A model generated the notes under the pieces. It was not told the origin of the DNA and made no database searches. It saw only the letters and a list, made by a program, of their open reading frames with translations. A stretch of DNA of 64,000 nucleotides from Malacoraja senta (lineage: Eukaryota), in the NCBI GenBank assembly GCA_038087875.1, contig CM075979.1, positions 12,028,001 through 12,092,000 on the forward strand. Reading direction: 5' to 3'. This document shows positions 45,835-61,263 of this stretch, one piece after another. Position 1 is the first letter of the stretch; every line of letters starts with the position of its first letter. The translations under genes and the position numbers were made by a program.

Positions 45835-46470
45835 ATACATAGATACATAGAAAATAGGTGCAGGAGTAGGCCATTCGGCCCTTCGAGCCTGCACCGCCAT
45901 TCAATATGATCATGGCTGATCATCCAACTCAGTATCCCGTACCTGCCTTCTCTCCATACCCCCTGATCCCTTTAGCCACAAGGGCCACATCTAACTCCCT
46001 CTTAAATATAGCCAATGAACTGGCCTCAACTACCCTCTGTGGCAGAGAGTTCCAGAGATTCACCACTCTCTGTGTGAAAAATGTTTTTCTCATCTCGGGC
46101 TTAAAGGATTTCCCCCTTATCCTTAAGCTGTGACCCCTTGTCCTGGACTTCCCCAACATCGGGAACAATCTTCCTGCATCTAGCCTGTCCAACCCCATAA
46201 GAATTTTGTAAGTTTCTATAAGATCCCCTCTCAATCTCCTAAATTCTAGCGAGTATAAGCCGAGTCTATCCAGTCTTTCTTCATATGAAAGTCCTGACAT
46301 CCCAGGAATCAGTCTGGTGAACCTTCTCTGCACTCCCTCTATGGCAATAATGTCCTTCCTCAGATTTGGAGACCAAAACTGTACACAATACTCCAGGTGT
46401 GGTCTCACCAAGACCCTGTACAACTGCAGTAGAACCTCCCTGCTCCTATACTCAAATCCTTTTGCTATGA
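45835..46470 (-). mobile_element. Young 5'-truncated CR1 nested in a Rex1-type fragment
   Basis: ORF 45929-46486(-): [35 protein letters not shown]...GIRGYGEKAGTGY, uninterrupted. Confidence 0.93.
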
Positions 46471-48094
46471 AAAGGACACAGTCCATAGAAGATCATAGTT
46501 GCTGAAGTTAGTATTGTGCAGTGTTCAAGAGCCTGATGATTGGTGGGAAGAAGCTGTTCTTGAACCTGGAGTTCACGGTTCCCAGGCTCCTGTACCTACA
46601 TCTCGATGGTGGAGGTGAGATGAGAGAGCGGCCAGGGTGATGTGGGTCTTTGGGCACCTCTATCGATGGTGGGGAGGTCGGTACCTTTGATGGACGGGGC
46701 ACTGTCAAGGAGAAGGTGGGATATGGATGGTTGTGACTGATGGAGGTGTGAAATTTTGGGGTGTGGAGGGGTGCCAGTAGGAGGGGCCTCCAGCTGAGGG
46801 GTGGTGTAGCAGGAGGGATTTGGGTGGGAGGCATGTAGGAGGCGGGTGAGTAAAGCAGTGGGTTATCAAGGGAGAGTTGGAATGCAGTGGAAGGGTGCAG
46901 GATGCTGTAGAGTTTTGAGGCTTATGGTCAGAGGCTGCAAGGTGTGTTTGACTTCAGTGAACTAATCCGCCTGGATTCCAGACACGTTCTTTGTGCTCTT
47001 CTGAGCGCAACATTCTAGCAGTGTTGCGGTGACTGAGTGAACCATTGCACAGAAACTTCAGAAATGTCACTTCGACATTCTGTATTGCAAAACTATTTTG
47101 CCAGAAATATTTGGCAGTCAAACAATGGATATTGGACCTGGCCACGGGCCGCTGTTCACTGGGCGTCCTGGTGCACGAACCAGGAAGCAGACAGGAGACC
47201 TGTGGAAACACCTCCGTCCTCCATGGAGACTAAACCCAGTCTCCCAAATGGCTGAATAAGCTACAGCATACGTTATTGAGCTCCCTCAGAACTGCCCCTC
47301 CCACAGTGCGGCGCTCCCTCAGTACCACTTTGACTGTGAGGTGCTACTCTAGTTTATCCCTGGTGCATGGACTGTGTTTCCCTGCCTGTGTTGCATATGG
47401 AGCTACAGCTGGCCCAGTGCAGGATGTAAATCAGTGAAGAATGCCCTGCACCTCAACGTAGTATCGAGTGACTGGGCTGCTGCCAAACGGATGATCTAAG
47501 CTCAGAAAAGCAGCAGATCAGCAGGACACTCGGTTCTTGACGCAGAGCCCAGCACCATCAATCCTTATCCTGTAGGGGCCTGCATTAGATCTCATAGATG
47601 TGCTTTGATCTCCACCTGGCCTGGGAGACAAGTGTTGCCTGTTGGCGGTGATCACCGCTTCCCAATGTAAAGCTATTCTGTTGATAGCTCCTCTCTCCTG
47701 GCTAGATCTCCTGGCAGACGGCAGGGGACTGTACCGGTTGAGATTTTCCCAAGGATTGCGATCTGAATATGTTCACCGACAGGCCAGCATGTCCAACCAA
47801 GGACACCGCAGGAAGAGATGAAAAAACACTGCCCTGTGCTGTGGCTGATTGAAATTTGTTCCCTGGAAAGACACCAAATGCTTGAGTAACTCAGCGGCTC
47901 AGGCAGCATCCCTGGATAGTATGGATAGGTGACGTTACGGATTGGGACCCTTCTTCAGACCCTGAAACATCACCTATCTAAGTTCTCCAGAGATGCTGCT
48001 TGACCCATTGAATTACTCCAGCATTTTGTGTCTTTCCTTGGGAAACCAACATCTGTAGTTCCCTGTTTCTATGAGATGCCCCCCCCCCCCCCTT

Positions 48095-50060: not shown

Positions 50061-50172
50061 TAAAATAGTAAGATTAAACGAGAACTTACCAGTTTGAAGT
50101 TTGATCTGTATTTTATGAGGAGTTACGATGAGGGATTACGTGAAGAACCCGCTCAGTGCGCAGGCACGGCAT
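50061..50172 (-). repeat. DIRS right terminus: ITR (50139-50172) plus 3' extension (50061-50142)
   Basis: 50139-50172 is the reverse complement of 54861-54894 (1 mismatch); 50061-50142 is the exact reverse complement of 50291-50372. Confidence 0.95.
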
Positions 50173-50290
50173 ACTTCCAAGCAGCGGTGTGGAATCACAG
50201 ATAGACACAGGTATTTGAAGTAAACATAGTAAAGAAAAGGAGACATCAATTTATTAGTTTGATCCATATAATGAGGGTGGGAGCGGAGGG

Positions 50291-50403
50291 CACGTAATCC
50301 CTCATCGTAACTCCTCATAAAATACAGATCAAACTTCAAACTGGTAAGTTCTCGTTTAATCTTACTATTTTACTTCGGAGTCACGTGAGTGACTTCGTGA
50401 AGA
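50291..50403 (-). repeat. DIRS internal complementary region (ICR)
   Basis: 82/82 match to the right extension plus 37/37 match (50367-50403) to the left end (54887-54923), overlapping at ATTTTA. Confidence 0.95.
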
Positions 50404-50571
50404 TTTCAAAGCTCTGTGATTTCAAACCGTGTAACAGTTTTATTTCACTCACTGCCGAAAGTTCTTGAGGGAGGAAGTGTTATCGTAATCAACCAATGAA
50501 TCCGTTTCTCAAGAAACAAAAAAGGTATTTATTAACAATAACAAAATTAAATAGCTCCCCCGGGCTTTAAA

Positions 50572-51555
50572 TTATATATTTGCAGCTTCTAATATTTTCT
50601 CTGCAAATAAATCTGGTTTCATCAACGGCTTATTATAAAAAGTTCTGAATGTCGTTTCCCTCGACCATCCTGCTGTATTCAGAATATGGTCAACCGGTAC
50701 GTCCATTCTTTCCGCCGTTGATGTAGATGCTGCCCTAGTGGAATGAGATTTAAATGTATTAGTATCTATTCCGGCAGCCTTCAGCACCTGTTTGAGCCAT
50801 CTTGCAATGGTTTGGCTCGTTACCCGGCCATGAGGTTTCTTGTGGCTGACCCATAAGGCTTTTTCACTCCCTCTGATAATGTGGGTTGTGTCTATATAAT
50901 GTTGTAGATGAGTCACGACACACAACCGTGGCTCTTGTGGGTAGGCCCGGAATACCACCAGTGGATTCGCTGTTCCTGGCCTGCTTTGCTTCACCAGACC
51001 CTGTATGATGAATGTGATCTGATCTGGGGTGGTCACCATGTTGTCCAGCCTTAACTGGTGTAGTGACTGAACCCTCTGAGCGGATACGAGTGCCATCAAC
51101 ATGAGCATCTTTAATGTAGATTGCTCGAGGCTGAGGGATCTGGCTGGTGGCCATTCCCTGAGGTATGTCAGGACCACACTGATATCCCAAATATGGGTAT
51201 ACCTGGGTTTAGGGGGCTTGATATTATAAATACCCTTCATCAGTTTTACCACCAGTGGATGTGATCCCATTGCCTGTTGTCCTGCTGGTTTGAGATACGC
51301 AGAAAGAGCACTCCGCGCTGTGTTGATGGCACTGTAACTAATCCCTTCATCATGGTGTAGATGGGCCAGGAACTCCAGTACGTTGGTGGCTGTGGCTGTT
51401 GCATACGTTGTTCCTGTTTCCTGGCAGTACTTCTCCCATTTTCTTATGCTGCTTAAGTACTGCCTCTTGGTGGATGTTCGAAGGGATGCCGACATGGTGG
51501 TGATGGTACGTTCGGACAATCCCAGTTCCAGATAAGGTCTATTCAAAACCTGCAA
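50572..51555 (-). CDS. DIRS tyrosine recombinase, intact frame
   Basis: Catalytic set R (SAQRVQSL), K (VKQSRP), HxxR (SHSTRAASTS), W (AGWS), Y (FRTFYNKP); N-terminal core-binding region (KRQYLSSIRKWEKYC..YSAINTARSALS). The frame opens at TTG and has no nearby ATG. Confidence 0.95.
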   Translation of the reverse strand: MQVLNRPYLELGLSERTITTMSASLRTSTKRQYLSSIRKWEKYCQETGTTYATATATNVLEFLAHLHHDEGISYSAINTARSALSAYLKPAGQQAMGSHPLVVKLMKGIYNIKPPKPRYTHIWDISVVLTYLREWPPARSLSLEQSTLKMLMLMALVSAQRVQSLHQLRLDNMVTTPDQITFIIQGLVKQSRPGTANPLVVFRAYPQEPRLCVVTHLQHYIDTTHIIRGSEKALWVSHKKPHGRVTSQTIARWLKQVLKAAGIDTNTFKSHSTRAASTSTAERMDVPVDHILNTAGWSRETTFRTFYNKPLMKPDLFAEKILEAANI

Positions 51556-53567
51556 CCCAGGAGTTTAATTTTCTCATGACATGGGTGGCTTATGCCTGTT
51601 ACTGGGTGAGTTAATAATCCTGGATCACTGGGAAAGACCATTGGTGACTCAACCACCATGTCATGTAGAACCGGGAACCATGGCTGTGTAGGCCAGTCGG
51701 GCACCATCAAAATTCCAGAAGCAGAGTCCATCTGTATTTTGCGAAGTACCCGACTGATGAGGCAGAAGGGAGGGAAAGCATAGAAGAAGAACTTTCCCCA
51801 ATCCAGCGTGAAGGCATCTAGCGCTGCTGCCTCTGGGTCTGGTTCCCAAGCGACATACATAGGTAACTGGTGATTTAGTCGTGATGCAAATAAATCAATA
51901 TCTGGCGTTCCATACTGCTTAATAACTTTAGCAAATACTTTAGGGTTTAACATCCATTCTATGTTATCATTGAATTTGCGTGACCTGGTGTCTGCCACTT
52001 TGTTTAGCTTACCTGGTAGATAAGTAGCTGATAGCCAAATATGTCTTTCGACACACCATTGCCAAATCACATTGACCAATTTGTCGCATGATAGTGATTT
52101 TATGCCGCCCATATGGTTAATATAAGCCACCACCGTAGTATTATCTATTTGTAACCGAACATGCAAGTGCTGCACAGTAGATACATATGCTTTTAAACCA
52201 TAAAAGGCTCCCAACATCTCTAGATAGTTAATGCCCAGTGTCAGTAGTAACGATGACTCTAGGTTAGTCCATCTACCACCTGTGCTGGATATGGAGTTAG
52301 TTGCTCCCCAGCCTTGAGCACTGACATCTGTTTGAAGAACTAAAGTAGGATTAGTGATAATGATAGAGCTGACACTATGCCAAACATTTTCTGCCCACCA
52401 CTGTAGCTCTGATATTGCTTCAGTGGGTAATTTCATGACACGATCATAGTGACCTGTATGTCGCTTTAGTGCCTGTACCTTTGCTCTTTGTAAATTTTGA
52501 TAGTGCAAAGGTCCGAATTGTGTAGCCGGAAATGCTGCTACCATTTTCCCAATCACTCTTGCTACTTGTCGAATAGTTGGTCGTTTGTTGACCATTAAAT
52601 TGTTGCATGATTGTGCTAATGCAACCATTTTTTCCTTTGGCAAGGTAACAGTCATATGGACTGAGTTAATTGTGGAGCCCAGGTAGTCCATGATAGTGGA
52701 TGGCTTCAACTTAGATTTATCTGGATGGATGATGAACCCCAGAGTTTCGAGGAGCTGTTTTGTAGCTGATACTGCTGCCACAGCCAATTCCTTCGTTTTC
52801 CCTACTATCAGAATATCATCCAAATATGCCATGACAATATGTTTTCGTTTTCTTAGTATTGCCATGGCTATTTTCAATATTTTGGTAAATAATCTTGGGG
52901 CCGAAGTTAGCCCATTGGGCAATGCTTTGTACTGCCACAGCTGCCCCAACCAGATAAATTTTAGGTATCTGCAATGATCTTTGTGTATGGGGACTGAATA
53001 GTACGCATCTCTAAGATCAATGCTTGCCATGAAATATCCTTTGGAAATCAGTTGTTTGGCAGTAACAAATGTTTCCATTTTGAAATGTATATACTGAACA
53101 AACTTATTTAGTGATCTTAAGTCGATGAGGATGCGACATCCCCCATCTTTTTTGGTTTTAGTGAATATATTTGATACAAATTCCAAAGGTTCATGTTTGG
53201 TCTTTTCGATGACCCCCTTTGTGATAAGTCTCACCAGTTCAGCTTGTCCCTCACGTTTCTCTTTGACGGAGGGAGAAAATACCCTTTGGGGCCAATGCTG
53301 AACTGGCGGCGATTGTTCTGACATGAACTGAATTTTATATCCACTAATGCTGTTGAGTATATACTTGTCACTCGTGACAGTAACCCATGCTTCTTTAAAC
53401 AAGTGTAATCTCCCCCCTGTTAGTAAAGCACCCTTATTCTCTATATGCTGGCAGGAACCAGACCCACCTACCTCCATGGTTATTGGTGTTTCTTTTGTTT
53501 CCTGAGGTTTTTGTACGGTTTGTTTGTCTGACGTGCTGGCGATGTTGGGGGGTGGCGCATTTTCCAT
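51543..53567 (-). CDS. DIRS pol: reverse transcriptase + RNase H + adenine-methyltransferase-like domain, intact frame
   Basis: RT: SIDLRDAYYSVPI, LPNGLTSAPRLFTK, YLDD. RNase H: LQTDVSAQGWGA, INYLEM, LQIDNTTVVAYI, ADTRSR. MT-like: PDIDLFAS...YAFPPF...ILMVPDWPTQPWF. Confidence 0.96.
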   Translation of the reverse strand: MENAPPPNIASTSDKQTVQKPQETKETPITMEVGGSGSCQHIENKGALLTGGRLHLFKEAWVTVTSDKYILNSISGYKIQFMSEQSPPVQHWPQRVFSPSVKEKREGQAELVRLITKGVIEKTKHEPLEFVSNIFTKTKKDGGCRILIDLRSLNKFVQYIHFKMETFVTAKQLISKGYFMASIDLRDAYYSVPIHKDHCRYLKFIWLGQLWQYKALPNGLTSAPRLFTKILKIAMAILRKRKHIVMAYLDDILIVGKTKELAVAAVSATKQLLETLGFIIHPDKSKLKPSTIMDYLGSTINSVHMTVTLPKEKMVALAQSCNNLMVNKRPTIRQVARVIGKMVAAFPATQFGPLHYQNLQRAKVQALKRHTGHYDRVMKLPTEAISELQWWAENVWHSVSSIIITNPTLVLQTDVSAQGWGATNSISSTGGRWTNLESSLLLTLGINYLEMLGAFYGLKAYVSTVQHLHVRLQIDNTTVVAYINHMGGIKSLSCDKLVNVIWQWCVERHIWLSATYLPGKLNKVADTRSRKFNDNIEWMLNPKVFAKVIKQYGTPDIDLFASRLNHQLPMYVAWEPDPEAAALDAFTLDWGKFFFYAFPPFCLISRVLRKIQMDSASGILMVPDWPTQPWFPVLHDMVVESPMVFPSDPGLLTHPVTGISHPCHEKIKLLGCRF

Positions 53568-54781
53568 GGGGTCCGCTGTGGGCCCTGATCTAAAAAAGAT
53601 CTTTGGGGATAAAATGCGGTCCCCGAGCTTTCACCAGTCCCATATTGAGGACGTCGACTGGTGGATGCCATGGGGTGCTGCCGCTTGGGTATTGCAGCTC
53701 TTGGTTTGCTCGTCCCGGGGCCTGCCCTCATGAGGCCGAAAGTTTTCGCTGCTTCCTCCATGTCCCTCAGTTTTTTATTGAGGTCTTTCCCAAATAACAG
53801 AGCATCCGTCTCTGCAGCTGGGGCTCTGCACAACCCAGCAAATTTGGGATTGAGGGCAGGTCTTATGTTTTCGCGCCGGAGATTGTTGATTTCAAATTGT
53901 GTGTTGCACATCAGTGCCAGCACATCCTGCTGGCACGTATCCATCTCCGTACTATCCACAGAACGAGCAAAGGCTGTTATGGCCGACGTCAGGAGCCTCA
54001 GGATCCGCTGTAGCTTGACTTCATGGTTACGCATGTTTGACCCCACGTGCCCCCAGATCTGGCTGTTCACAGTCTTCACTCTGAGGGCCTCACAGTTCTC
54101 TGGTGCTGTGTACAGTTCAAGCGCCTCTAGCAGTACCTTCTCCTGCTAGGGCTTATTTGATAGATGATTTATGCTGGCTGCCATTTTTGGTTCCAGCGGT
54201 CTTCCAGCACGTGGGGTTGCTACATAGCGGTCCACGACACCCAGCAGCTCTTCCTGCTCCTGCACCCCTTGCATACCGCCGAATTCGTCCGCCAGCCCCT
54301 GTTCCAGACCAGCCCAACCCTGGTCGCCAATGCTAGCCTCCAGTAATGAGGGAGCAGAGGGCAGTGCACAAGACACTGTGGAGGAGGTGCCTGACCTACC
54401 TCCGCGGGAACGCTCCTTCTGCGCATCCCGCTGGAGCATCTGCTCCAAGAGCTGTTGTAAGCTCTGGCGGCTGTCTCTCCTCCGTTTCGGTGGAGACATG
54501 TCCCCCTCCGACGAATCAGAAATGACCGGCCGGATACTTTTCCTCATGGCTTTCCTCCCTGTCCGCTGTGCAGGCATTAGCGGGACTGGGCTCGGCTCGG
54601 TCTCGGGGATAGCGGAGCGCTCTATGAGCGTTCCTGCCGCCTGTTGCTGTCCCCCTGCGATTGAACGCTCCTCTGGTGGAGATGAGCTGGGGGCAGTTCT
54701 CTTCGAGAGTCTTTTCTTTTGTGAACTCATTTCGTAAGTACACGTCTTTAACTCTCCTTCTCCGTTAGATAACTTCAGCAT
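53480..54781 (-). pseudogene. DIRS gag-like ORF1 interrupted by one in-frame TAG at 54146-54148
   Basis: ORFs 54146-54781 and 53480-54079 share a frame; the intervening 66 nt are open (NKP*QEKVLLEALELYTAPENCEALRVKTVNSQIW); conserved-looking PENC..L.V..VN..IW, RRENIRPALN and LLFG motifs. Confidence 0.85.
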
Positions 54782-54860
54782 ACTTACCCAACGGTCCGTC
54801 TTTTAAACTGCAGCCGGAGAGCCTTCCTCCAGCTGCCGCCGCTGTTGCACTGCTGGCGTA

Positions 54861-54923
54861 ATGCCGCGCCTGCGCACTGAGCGGGTTCTTCACGAAGTCA
54901 CTCACGTGACTCCGAAGTAAAAT
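54861..54923 (-). repeat. DIRS left terminus (ICR-complementary end + ITR)
   Basis: - strand ATTTTACTTCGGAGTCACGTGAGTGACTTCGTGAAGAACCCGCTCAGTGCGCAGGCGCGGCAT. Confidence 0.95.
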
Positions 54924-55139
54924 TTGCTAATATGAAGTGTATGTGAAATATAGAAAATAAACAGACATTTTTTTTCAAGTTACGTTTCTTGACATATGGA
55001 CGTGTGTAATGGAAAATCGCGATTATAGACCGAGTAATTCCTCTTCCTGCTGTAAAGTGGGGTGATCTGTAAAGGAAAGCGGGAAAAGATTGATATAAAA
55101 ACGACAAAGGAAAAGAAAATAATGTCCACATAATGTCAG

Positions 55140-56789: not shown

Positions 56790-57106
56790 TAAGAAATCCA
56801 GAACCAGGGGTCGCAGTCTTAGAATAATGGGGAGGCCATTTAAGACTGAGGTGAGAAAAAACGTTTTCACCCAGAGAGTTGTGAACTTGTGGAATTCCCT
56901 GCCACAGAGGGCAGTGGAGGCCAAATCACTGGATGGATTTAAGAGAGAGTTGGATAGAGCTCTAAGGGCTAGTGGAATCAAGGGATATGGGGAGAAGGCA
57001 GGCACGGGTTATTGATTGGGGACGATCAGCCATGATCACAATGAATGGCGGTGCTGGCTCGAAGGGCCGAATGGTCTCCTCCTGCACCTATTTTCTATGT
57101 TTCTAT
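56790..57106 (+). mobile_element. CR1 3' fragment
   Basis: SRTRGRSLRIMGRPFKTEVRKNVFTQRVVNLWNSLP..GIKGYGEKAGTGY with TTCTATGT tail. Confidence 0.9.
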
Positions 57107-58784
57107 AAATGGGGTCCCATCACTGAGTAGCCGACTTATAGTCAATGGAGTGTATTCAGTGGAGACACACAGCATGAAACAGGGCCTTTGGCCCGCCATG
57201 CCTACACAGACCCTCACGACCCTTTACACTACCCCTTTCCTATTTTATTCTCCCCCATATTCTCATCAACTCCTCCCTTAATTTACCCCTTACCTACACA
57301 CTGGGGGCAATTTACATTCACCTACCAACCGGCTCATGTTTGCGATGTGGGAGGTGACCGGAGTGCCCAGGGGAAACCCATGGGAACACAGGGAAAACAT
57401 GCAAACTCCATACAAAAATTATGGAGGTCAGGTTTGATCCTGACCTCCATAACGCCGGAGGTCAGGATCAAACCTGTGCTGCTGAAACCTTGTGCTGCAC
57501 CACTGTGCTGTCAGAGGAACCCTTATCCCAGAGGTTTCCCCCATGGGGGCACCCTGTCCTTGTCTCAGGGGTCTGCAAGGGACCCATAGATGGAGAGTGC
57601 TTGCTGGGGTGGATGGACTCAGCCACCTATGGAAGGGCAGAACCTGTGGGCTGTTTCCTGGCAGACTGCCCCAACGTTCTCTTGCAATACCAGACCTTCC
57701 CCAAGTTACAATAATGTTTTAACTCTTGTCTGAGATCAAGCTGACAATCAAATATCATCTTGTGATTCAGAAACAGAAACCAGATGTGCAGCATTTATCT
57801 CAGGAGACCCTCGGGCAGTTACACCACCACGGCCTGTGTCCTTTCGCTGGACGGTGCAAGGGTCATGGCAGCTCAGGACACTGCCCTTCTCTGCTCGGTA
57901 AGGACAAGAGAACTACATTTCTGTAGCGTCATTCACCACTGCAGTATATCTCAGAGCACTTTGTAGCCAATAGAACCACTGTGGTCACTACTGAGTCAAG
58001 AGTCTTTCATTGCCAGGTATAACAACAACAGAACAATAACATTCTTACTTGCTGCAACCTTACAGGGCTGTAAACACGCAGATTACAACAATCAATAATG
58101 CAATAAATCAATAATCAGACCATAATACTAGTGCAAAGCTGAAGTCCGTAGTGCAACCAACACAAAGTCCAAAAACCAGCTGTTCTCTGTCCGCTGGCCA
58201 TTTGCACGCACTTGCTAACTGCAGGCATGTACCATCCCTGTCATACCATTCATTGTTTTGCACCGCTCTTTCACAGATGCCTTAATCTAGAACATTGCTG
58301 GAGTTGCCAGCCATTTGTAATCCAGAAGCACTTTAGACCATTGTCGTTGGATCGACATCGAGAGGGAGTAGAGAAACCTTCACCATCAGAGGAGCACCGG
58401 ACTGAAGCGGGAGAGGCGCAGACCGCAGCCAGGTGAGATCACCTTGCACGTACAGTACATCATGGTCTGTCTACACTTGAGCCAGCAGTACTGGCCACTG
58501 GACCTGACTGCCGGAGGATAGTCAACCAGTGCAGAGCAAGGTCGGGCACCTGAGAGGTCAGGCCTGGAACTAAAGATCTCGGCTCCAGGCCTAGGGTAGC
58601 ACCTAACCACAGCGGGTCTGCTGCATGGGACAGAGGGTTGGGGGAGATCAGCATCTTTCCCCGGGCTTGAAAATATCCAGAGAGGAAGGGAAGGATCTGT
58701 ATTTCTGCAGCACCCATCCCATCCCTTTCAGGATGTCCAAAGCCCTCCCCAGCCAATGCAACACTTATTTGGAAGTGGTATAAT

Positions 58785-60504: not shown

Positions 60505-61263
60505 TATCTGAATGGTGGCCGATTAGGAAAAGGGGAGATGCAACGAGACCTGGGTGTCATGGTACACCAGTCATTGAAAGTAGGCATGCGGGTGCAGCAG
60601 GCAGCAAAGAAAGCGAATGGTATGTTGGCATTCATAGCAAAAGGATTTGAGTGTAGGAGCAGGGAGGTTCTACTGCAGTTGTACAGGGTCTTGGTGAGAC
60701 CACACCTGGAGTATTGCGTACAGTTTTGGTCTCCAAATCTGAGGAAAGACATTCTTGCCATAGAGGGAGTACAGAGAAGGTTCACCAGACTGATTCCTGG
60801 GATGTCTGGACTTTCATATGAAGAAAGACTGGATAGACTCGGCTTGTACTCGCTAGAATTTAGAAGATTGAGGGGGGATCTTATAGAAACTTACAAAATT
60901 CTTAAGGGGTTGGACAGGCTAGATGCAGGAAGATTGTTCCCGATGTTGGGGAAGTCCAGAACAAGGGGTCACAGTTTAAGGATAAGGGGGAAATCTTTTA
61001 GGACCGAGATGAGAAAAACATTTTTCACACAGAGAGTGGTGAATCTGTGGAATTCTCTGCCACAGAAGGTAGTTGAGGCCAGTTCATTGGCTATATTTAA
61101 GAGGGAGTTAGATGTGGCCCTTGTGGCTAAAGGGATCAGGGGGTATGGAGAGAAGGCAGGGATGGGATACTGAGTTGGATGATCAGCCATGATCATATTG
61201 AATGGCGGTGCAGGCTCGAAGGGCCGAATGGGCTACTCCTGCACGTATTTTCTATGTTTCTAT
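60505..61263 (+). mobile_element. Young 5'-truncated CR1 nested in an older antisense CR1 (about 60265-61460)
   Basis: Uninterrupted ORF2 C-terminus YLNGGRLGKGEMQRDLGVMVHQSLKV...GYGEKAGMGY; the older host copy resumes after 61263. Confidence 0.93.

Follow-up and report, generated by a model that had tools for sequence, protein, structure and literature searches.

A proposed -1 frameshift and retained pol-spanning intron in a DIRS1-type retrotransposon of Malacoraja senta and related animal elements

The window analysed here is a stretch of 64,000 nucleotides (nt) from Malacoraja senta (GenBank assembly GCA_038087875.1, contig CM075979.1, positions 12,028,001 to 12,092,000 of the forward strand). 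Its minus strand carries a young DIRS1-type retrotransposon, family A, with gag, pol and tyrosine recombinase (YR) frames. The comparison of this element with related families makes it reasonably probable that one -1 ribosomal frameshift, together with a retained intron whose removal between a donor (D2) and an acceptor (A2) takes out pol, yields three products: Gag, Gag-Pol and Gag-linker-YR. With somewhat less assurance, we lean towards the view that this undescribed plan for Gag, Gag-Pol and Gag-YR is common to a broad set of DIRS1-type elements in animals, the acceptor usually lying on the pol codons for FPPF-S. The first-pass annotation had proposed retrovirus-like alternative splicing with two introns, D1-A1 and D2-A2; it probably found the key intron, D2-A2, and misread its upstream partner.

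Under the proposed plan, full-length RNA would be translated into Gag and would also serve as template, while some ribosomes would slip by -1 at T TTT TTA (53597-53591) and continue into a Gag fusion with the reverse transcriptase (RT), RNase H and methyltransferase. Some transcripts would be spliced from D2 to A2, losing pol and retaining gag; this RNA would give Gag and, via the same slip through a short linker, Gag-linker-YR. Both enzymes would be made as Gag fusions at a low ratio and packaged through Gag, and weak splice sites would keep most of the RNA unspliced as template. The plan is built on signals in the DNA, with their phase, conservation and covariation, from which splicing, frameshifting, the proteins made and their packaging through Gag are predicted.

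The comparison set was derived from a pol alignment, which led to 80 metagenome loci at 35-52% identity in the best segment and from these to 56 cluster representatives. Together with four families of this genome, A and its sisters B, C and D (found by protein search of the genome, 70-81% DNA identity), the set comprises 60 family representatives. The RT start was located in 49 of them and the YR start in 50 (11 and 10 were not locatable). Splice sites were scored against the splice-site consensus with a donor cut-off of at least 9, the window's own D2 scoring 8, just below it. The tree used for covariation and type changes contains no named reference elements.

The best donor within 150 nt before the RT start scored at least 9 in 37 of 49 families, compared with 11 of 469 control windows inside RT. 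It lay in pol phase 0 in 37.7 families, in phase 1 in 11.3 and in phase 2 in none, and the phase-1 sites were often tandem, 4-5 nt from a phase-0 site. The codons spanned by donors of the D2 type vary among families while the match to U1 stays constant, and therefore the constraint acts on RNA. Six consecutive four-fold sites after D2 are identical in families A-D (about 0.25^6 by chance), in contrast to the RT/RNase H core of the same families, where 33 of 130 four-fold sites are identical and the longest run is 4. Of 33 families with the slippery heptamer described below, 32 have the donor downstream of the gag stop and 31 have it at most 50 nt away from that stop; by the 50-55 nt rule of nonsense-mediated decay, the spliced RNA would therefore escape that decay. 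The D2 motif is common to the sister families of this genome, with 2,576 exact genomic matches. As first annotated, GT 53471-53470 follows 32 pol codons, and D2-A2 is a phase 0-0 join that would give 32 + 325 = 357 amino acids (aa). D2 looks like a real donor on this comparison, and production of YR through a D2-A2 splice removing pol is well supported across families.

Gag and pol share a single frame in seven families, most of which keep the phase-0 donor. At L076, L081 and L083, where this is the arrangement, tandem donors 5 nt apart, in phase 0 and phase 1, stand about 60-150 nt before the RT start; they could give Gag-YR and Gag alone.

On the YR side, the best acceptor in the 273 nt around the YR start was in YR phase 0 in 45 of 50 families, and in 42 of 50 it was also within the open YR frame. 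Its score reached at least 10 in 46 of 50 families vs 22 of 227 controls. In most families the acceptor coincides with the pol codons F-P-P-F-S, about 71 codons upstream of the YR start. Where an AG is present at the FPPF codons, 29 of 31 families have the YR frame open from that point on, as against 2 of 16 families without the AG (Fisher p 4e-8); at background stop density, 71 open codons have p=0.002. Eight lineages lack the FPPF AG, and each has another phase-0 acceptor in its open stretch (chance 0.012-0.295 each). The clade of the window is one of the eight: a Cys codon comes after FPPF, the open stretch of the YR frame in A, B and D is just 5-8 codons long, and A2 is its sole YAG. The AG at 51551-51550 and the weak pyrimidine tract (7/12) are as first described. 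The TGCAG of A2 is kept in A-D and in the sister families L061, L062, L064 and L122; a higher-scoring phase-0 YAG lies 204 nt upstream, separated from YR by stops. Moreover, a RefSeq predicted gene model from a brittle star (XP_072015819.1, here P0255) fuses Gag with YR through the homologous donor and the acceptor at FPPFS. From these positions the YR frame looks to have a phase-0 acceptor that moves among lineages.

The first ATG of the YR frame in the window is codon 19 after A2 (51495), so the 21 ATG-free codons first reported were a slight overcount; residue G10, upstream of this ATG, is nearly invariant. YR homologues of 360-420 aa were considered as proteins with spliced leaders and rejected, their length being that of the genomic -1-frame overlap with pol. 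The same overlap led to the rejection of P0282 and P0284 as spliced YR proteins, and the pol-YR fusion P0002 looks like a frameshifted copy, not a splice product. In L048, a family B copy (~3366), a short deletion near the pol end improves the A2 pyrimidine tract and alters the end of pol.

A -1 frameshift heptamer is the better reading of the site first annotated as acceptor A1. Its AG (53591-53590), the ATG at 53567 located 22 nt downstream and the lack of any ATG in between were all confirmed; the same letters, however, form T TTT TTA in gag phase. Of 44 families, 31 have T TTT TTA or A AAA AAC, both classic retroviral heptamers, in gag phase, and none has either out of phase. Fifteen of these 31 heptamers lack the AG (twelve AAAAAAC and three TTTTTTAT), which makes acceptor use impossible. 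Pol-frame stops account for 422 of 6200 codons (6.8%) before the heptamer and 2 of 1712 after it, and the heptamer changes between T and A type at least six times on the tree. RNA folding is stronger downstream than upstream of the heptamer across families (z -1.30 vs -0.11, n=33, p=0.003). L103, L104, L112 and L137 have a TTTTTTA that is not in pol phase, 150-310 nt upstream of the RT start, and in the first two it runs directly into a GTRAGT donor; these loci possibly have a different architecture or are frameshifted copies.

Upstream, the GT of D1 (54787-54786) and the ATG at 54781 are where the first-pass annotation put them, but this ATG is not the gag start: among 28 copies it is in frame with gag in nine, out of frame in nine and ATA in ten. 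The conserved start is at 54730, so D1 lies 57 nt before gag and is not directly adjacent to it. The leader described as ATG-free is so inside the element, the ATGs at 54968 and 54995 lying beyond the 5' end (~54923). Families B-D have a clean acceptor 48-54 nt after D1, just before the gag ATG, which family A has lost. Across 33 families, a donor of at least 9 upstream of gag was found in 8 and a donor/acceptor pair in 1. Among side observations at this end, L002, L004-L006, L009-L012 and L016 are the copies in which the upstream ATG and gag differ in frame, and in L002 its short open reading frame (ORF) ends on the gag start (ATGA overlap). A hairpin possibly masks D1; its complementary stretch differs in older copies.

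All family-A copies covering the four sites keep the GT and AG letters, although copies 95-99% alike say little on this point. In the wider set of families D2 and a YR acceptor are conserved, while D1, and A1 as an acceptor, are not. The argument that four signals at ORF boundaries exceed chance stands for D2 and the YR acceptor; A1 is also beyond chance, but as a heptamer, and D1 is kept as a donor only in A-D.

A main route through D1-A1 in this lineage, with Pol begun at ATG 53567 (or 53477), D2-A2 adding a short leader to YR and the heptamer now acting mainly as acceptor, seems unlikely to us. It draws on D1, a good donor throughout A-D with no regular counterpart in other families, and on the nearest acceptor in B-D, which at 48-54 nt is perhaps too close and might push D1 downstream. 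The ATG at 53477, in strong context, is kept in A-D and in the protein P0121; no stimulatory hairpin was found in A-D; and in 9 of 16 families, three of them A, B and D, the first ATG past TTTTTTAG belongs to the pol frame, vs 1 of 14 for heptamers without AG. Set against this, the A1 site coincides exactly with a heptamer in gag phase, and its AAAAAAC and TTTTTTAT homologues are unable to be acceptors. The sequence upstream of the six Ts is purine-rich in C and D, another AG stands about 12 nt before in all of A-D, and no D1-A1 joined DNA copy was found by probe. The ATG at 53567 is GTG in C, and a pol-frame ATG before the donor is present in 11 of 34 heptamer families and absent from 23; the leader-ATG route is therefore not general. 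The alternation of the gag-phase heptamer with A AAA AAC and the single donor/acceptor pair among 33 families likewise speak against D1-A1 as the general source of Pol and of the YR leader. As a lineage-specific extra route, D1-A1 is possible and somewhat less doubtful. In B, C and D the gag TGA and a pol-frame ATG share letters (ATGA), and in A the stop lies 2 nt before ATG 53477; stop-restart translation at this point is a possible extra route.

That gag stop and pol-frame ATG adjoin in A-D also fits an account without splicing, which we hold to be improbable: Pol may be reinitiated at 53477, and YR would be translated after another -1 slip out of pol, by ribosomes that reinitiate behind the pol stop, or from an ATG of its own. 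YR lies in the -1 frame relative to pol in every family where it was located; frameshifting is suggested for the Ngaro YR by Poulter and Butler, as quoted in the available part of PMC13003380; an ATG stands at YR codon -2 in several relatives and at codon 2 in family B; and intron-less DNA copies were not seen. Yet no more than 6 of 50 families have an in-phase slippery heptamer within the pol/YR overlap, in differing places, making a second frameshift into YR unlikely, and an early YR-frame ATG (up to codon 10) is absent in 19 of 50. This account also leaves unexplained the conserved phase-0 donor and the open YR frame reaching back to the acceptor. Least probable of all, we think, is that the splice-like motifs are by-products of the protein motifs E-V-G, F-P-P-F-S, C-R and F-L and have no RNA function. 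Every site does overlap coding sequence, A2 is weak here, and the protein motifs FPPF and CR bring pyrimidines and AG with them in any case; however, donor codons vary under a constant U1 match, synonymous sites are frozen at D2, and the residue after FPPF begins with AG where the YR frame is open. In P0121 and P0282 (treated as one family), pol has S-R instead of C-R, yet the frames of these two proteins would still imply a CAG before YR.

Several results weigh against the frameshift-and-intron plan itself. No spliced junction was observed in RNA or DNA. Three junction probes (the D1-A2 join being outside the probe set) gave no match to an intron-less DNA copy, compared with the 2,576 unspliced D2 motifs; spliced RNA, if made, is therefore not copied back. 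In contigs from three runs of a divergent species, presumed to be RNA, and from one other run, none of the 15 joints listed (of 50) matches a predicted junction, and among the contigs listed five cross A2 unspliced; this speaks neither for nor against splicing. The link between the FPPF AG and the open frame is not significant on the tree (3.2 independent pairs agree and 0 oppose, p 0.25), which also favours the by-product account, and its motifs FPPF and CR count here too. In A, B and D, A2 reaches 7-8/12 and is outscored by another site, and the hairpin after the heptamer is absent in A-D under a model without pseudoknots (z +1.4, -0.2, +0.5, +0.1). Only P0255 among 40 long YR proteins has a clean Gag-YR join at the predicted sites; it is a predicted gene model, and other gene models fuse pol to YR at different points. 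Moreover, splice sites were scored by simple counts against the consensus, and the thresholds for the moved YR acceptors were fixed after the sites were seen.

The element has the features of the DIRS1-like group: gag, an RT-bearing pol and YR ORFs, inverted terminal repeats (ITRs) and two overlapping internal complementary regions (ICRs). The ITRs, 54861-54904 and 50129-50172, are 91% alike. Of the ICR arms, 50367-50403 pairs with 54887-54923 and 50291-50372 with 50061-50142, both at 100%. The gag frame has no Pfam match and was named by position and size; in the window copy it is interrupted by a stop (54148-54146) that other copies do not have. Pol matches Pfam RVT_1 (E 3.5e-21). No Pfam match for RNase H or methyltransferase was obtained with the window's protein; full-length homologues at 43-50% identity carry PF17917, PF05869 or PF12237. 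A protein search gave a skate protein as the closest named one to the element's proteins. The PDB search returned only RT among the 60 matches listed, and neither pol nor YR matched viral contigs. The coordinates are collected in Table 1.

Table 1. Features of the family A element in the window (positions in the 64,000-nt stretch)
Feature	Positions	Strand	Remarks
Full-length DIRS1-type tyrosine-recombinase retrotransposon (family A)	50061..54923	-	~4.86 kb; copies at 95-99% identity share both ends
5' terminus and left ITR	54861..54923	-	inverted pairs I17, I20
D1 donor TGG|GTAAGT in 5' leader	54786..54787	-	CAG|GTAAGT at the same place in B, C, D
Upstream ATG	54779..54781	-	not the conserved gag start; 28 copies compared
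gag ORF	53480..54730	-	416 codons; conserved start ATG 54730, common to family B
pol frame	51543..53630	-	695 open codons; RT, then RNase H and methyltransferase-like parts by homology
Slippery heptamer T TTT TTA	53591..53597	-	gag phase, -1 into pol frame; with G 53590, the proposed acceptor A1
Pol-frame ATG, earlier proposed pol start	53565..53567	-	overlaps gag Pro-Trp codons; present in A, B, D; GTG in C
Second pol-frame ATG	53475..53477	-	2 nt past gag stop, two codons before D2; kept in A-D and P0121
D2 donor GAG|GTAGGT	53454..53471	-	8 nt past gag stop; pol phase 0; 18 invariant nt
Predicted retained intron	51550..53471	-	1,922 nt, nearly all of pol; predicted from D2 and A2
pol FPPF-C codons	51762..51776	-	no AG; most relatives have FPPF-S (AGY) and the YR acceptor here
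A2 acceptor TTGCAG|G	51550..51551	-	only phase-0 YAG in 5 open codons before YR; weak tract
YR frame	50572..51549	-	325 codons from A2; Pfam Phage_integrase, Phage_int_SAM
AATAAA, candidate poly(A) signal	50528..50533	-	between YR stop and ICR; kept in A, B
Internal complementary region	50291..50403	-	two arms complementary to both termini, overlap 50367-50372; pairs I4, I20, 100%
Right ITR and 3' extension	50061..50172	-	inverted pairs I4, I17

The candidate poly(A) signal was not placed in families C and D by pattern search, and AATAAA before the ICR is not enriched across families (8 of 28 vs 4.3 expected; 6 on the other strand), so it was dropped as a reason for the absence of spliced copies. 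Further donor-like sites are CAC|GTGAGT at 54905 in the left ITR, a possible partner for the acceptor that families B-D have before gag, and CTG|GTAAGT at 50089 near the 3' terminus. Next to the family-A copies L010, L011, L023 and L024 lies a piece of a sister family (74% identical), suggesting that they inserted into other DIRS copies or next to them. Elsewhere in the window, a 633-nt repeat is present in two opposite copies (45839-46471 and 60631-61263, 96% alike) and an older one (56793-57109); the copies are probably retroposon ends.

The -1 Gag-Pol frameshifting of retroviruses and Ty3/gypsy elements uses U UUU UUA in human immunodeficiency virus 1 (HIV-1) and A AAA AAC in mouse mammary tumour virus (MMTV) and human T-cell leukaemia virus (HTLV). 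The DIRS1-type families have the same two heptamers in the same phase, often with a predicted downstream hairpin; they differ in that one slip would serve two enzymes chosen by splicing and in that neither protease nor env was seen in the element. We know of no frameshift shared by two alternatively spliced enzymes in retroviruses or long terminal repeat (LTR) elements. Retroviral env and foamy-virus pol are made from spliced RNA in which a leader donor removes gag. Likewise, YR would be reached by removing upstream coding sequence, but here the supported donor comes after gag, so that gag would stay in the spliced RNA. Alternative splicing of a retained intron also sets the protein balance of the Ty1/Copia element EVD, as far as the accessible part of PMC5580714 describes it. 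In EVD the spliced RNA yields only Gag, and splicing is coupled to early termination, whereas here pol would be swapped for the recombinase. In Ngaro elements YR also overlaps the pol end in the -1 frame (Poulter and Butler 2015, as quoted in the available part of PMC13003380, where frameshifting is proposed for YR), while the DIRS1-type families studied here show acceptors, not slippery sites, in that overlap.

The DIRS1-like superfamily, with Dictyostelium DIRS-1, has the same gag, pol and YR frames, ITRs and two overlapping ICRs (PMC3266345, in part). The available parts of PMC3266345 and PMC9210276 state no mechanism for pol/YR expression, whereas here a short pol/YR overlap comes with the proposed splice and frameshift signals. 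The available text of PMC3266345, an overview of DIRS1-like elements, has no mention of 'splic', 'intron' or 'translat', and that of PMC9210276 none of 'splic', 'frameshift' or 'intron'. No description of native DIRS1 splicing was found in a literature search without the main reviews, the Goodwin and Poulter papers, Repbase and supplements, nor in the available parts of PMC6681497, PMC5633606, PMC12477816, PMC9341512, PMC9940879 and PMC8547959. The splicing in the accessible text of PMC7192593 is that of an engineered marker; the same text reports that the DIRS-1 RT can act in trans. The available part of PMC3950715 reports shorter sense RNAs, which were not mapped.

The element is of a known kind with a probably undescribed expression plan. 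The expression of ORF2 and ORF3 in DIRS elements is left without an answer in the literature covered, the one proposal, for Ngaro, being a frameshift (available part of PMC13003380). The proposed plan names exact junctions and a slip site in dozens of families and is testable in RNA-seq of corals, echinoderms, molluscs and fish. If true, it would correct the annotation of YR and Pol, in their N-termini and as Gag fusions, would account for the roughly 70 codons by which pol and YR overlap, and would show how a recombinase without a start of its own is made and loaded into particles.

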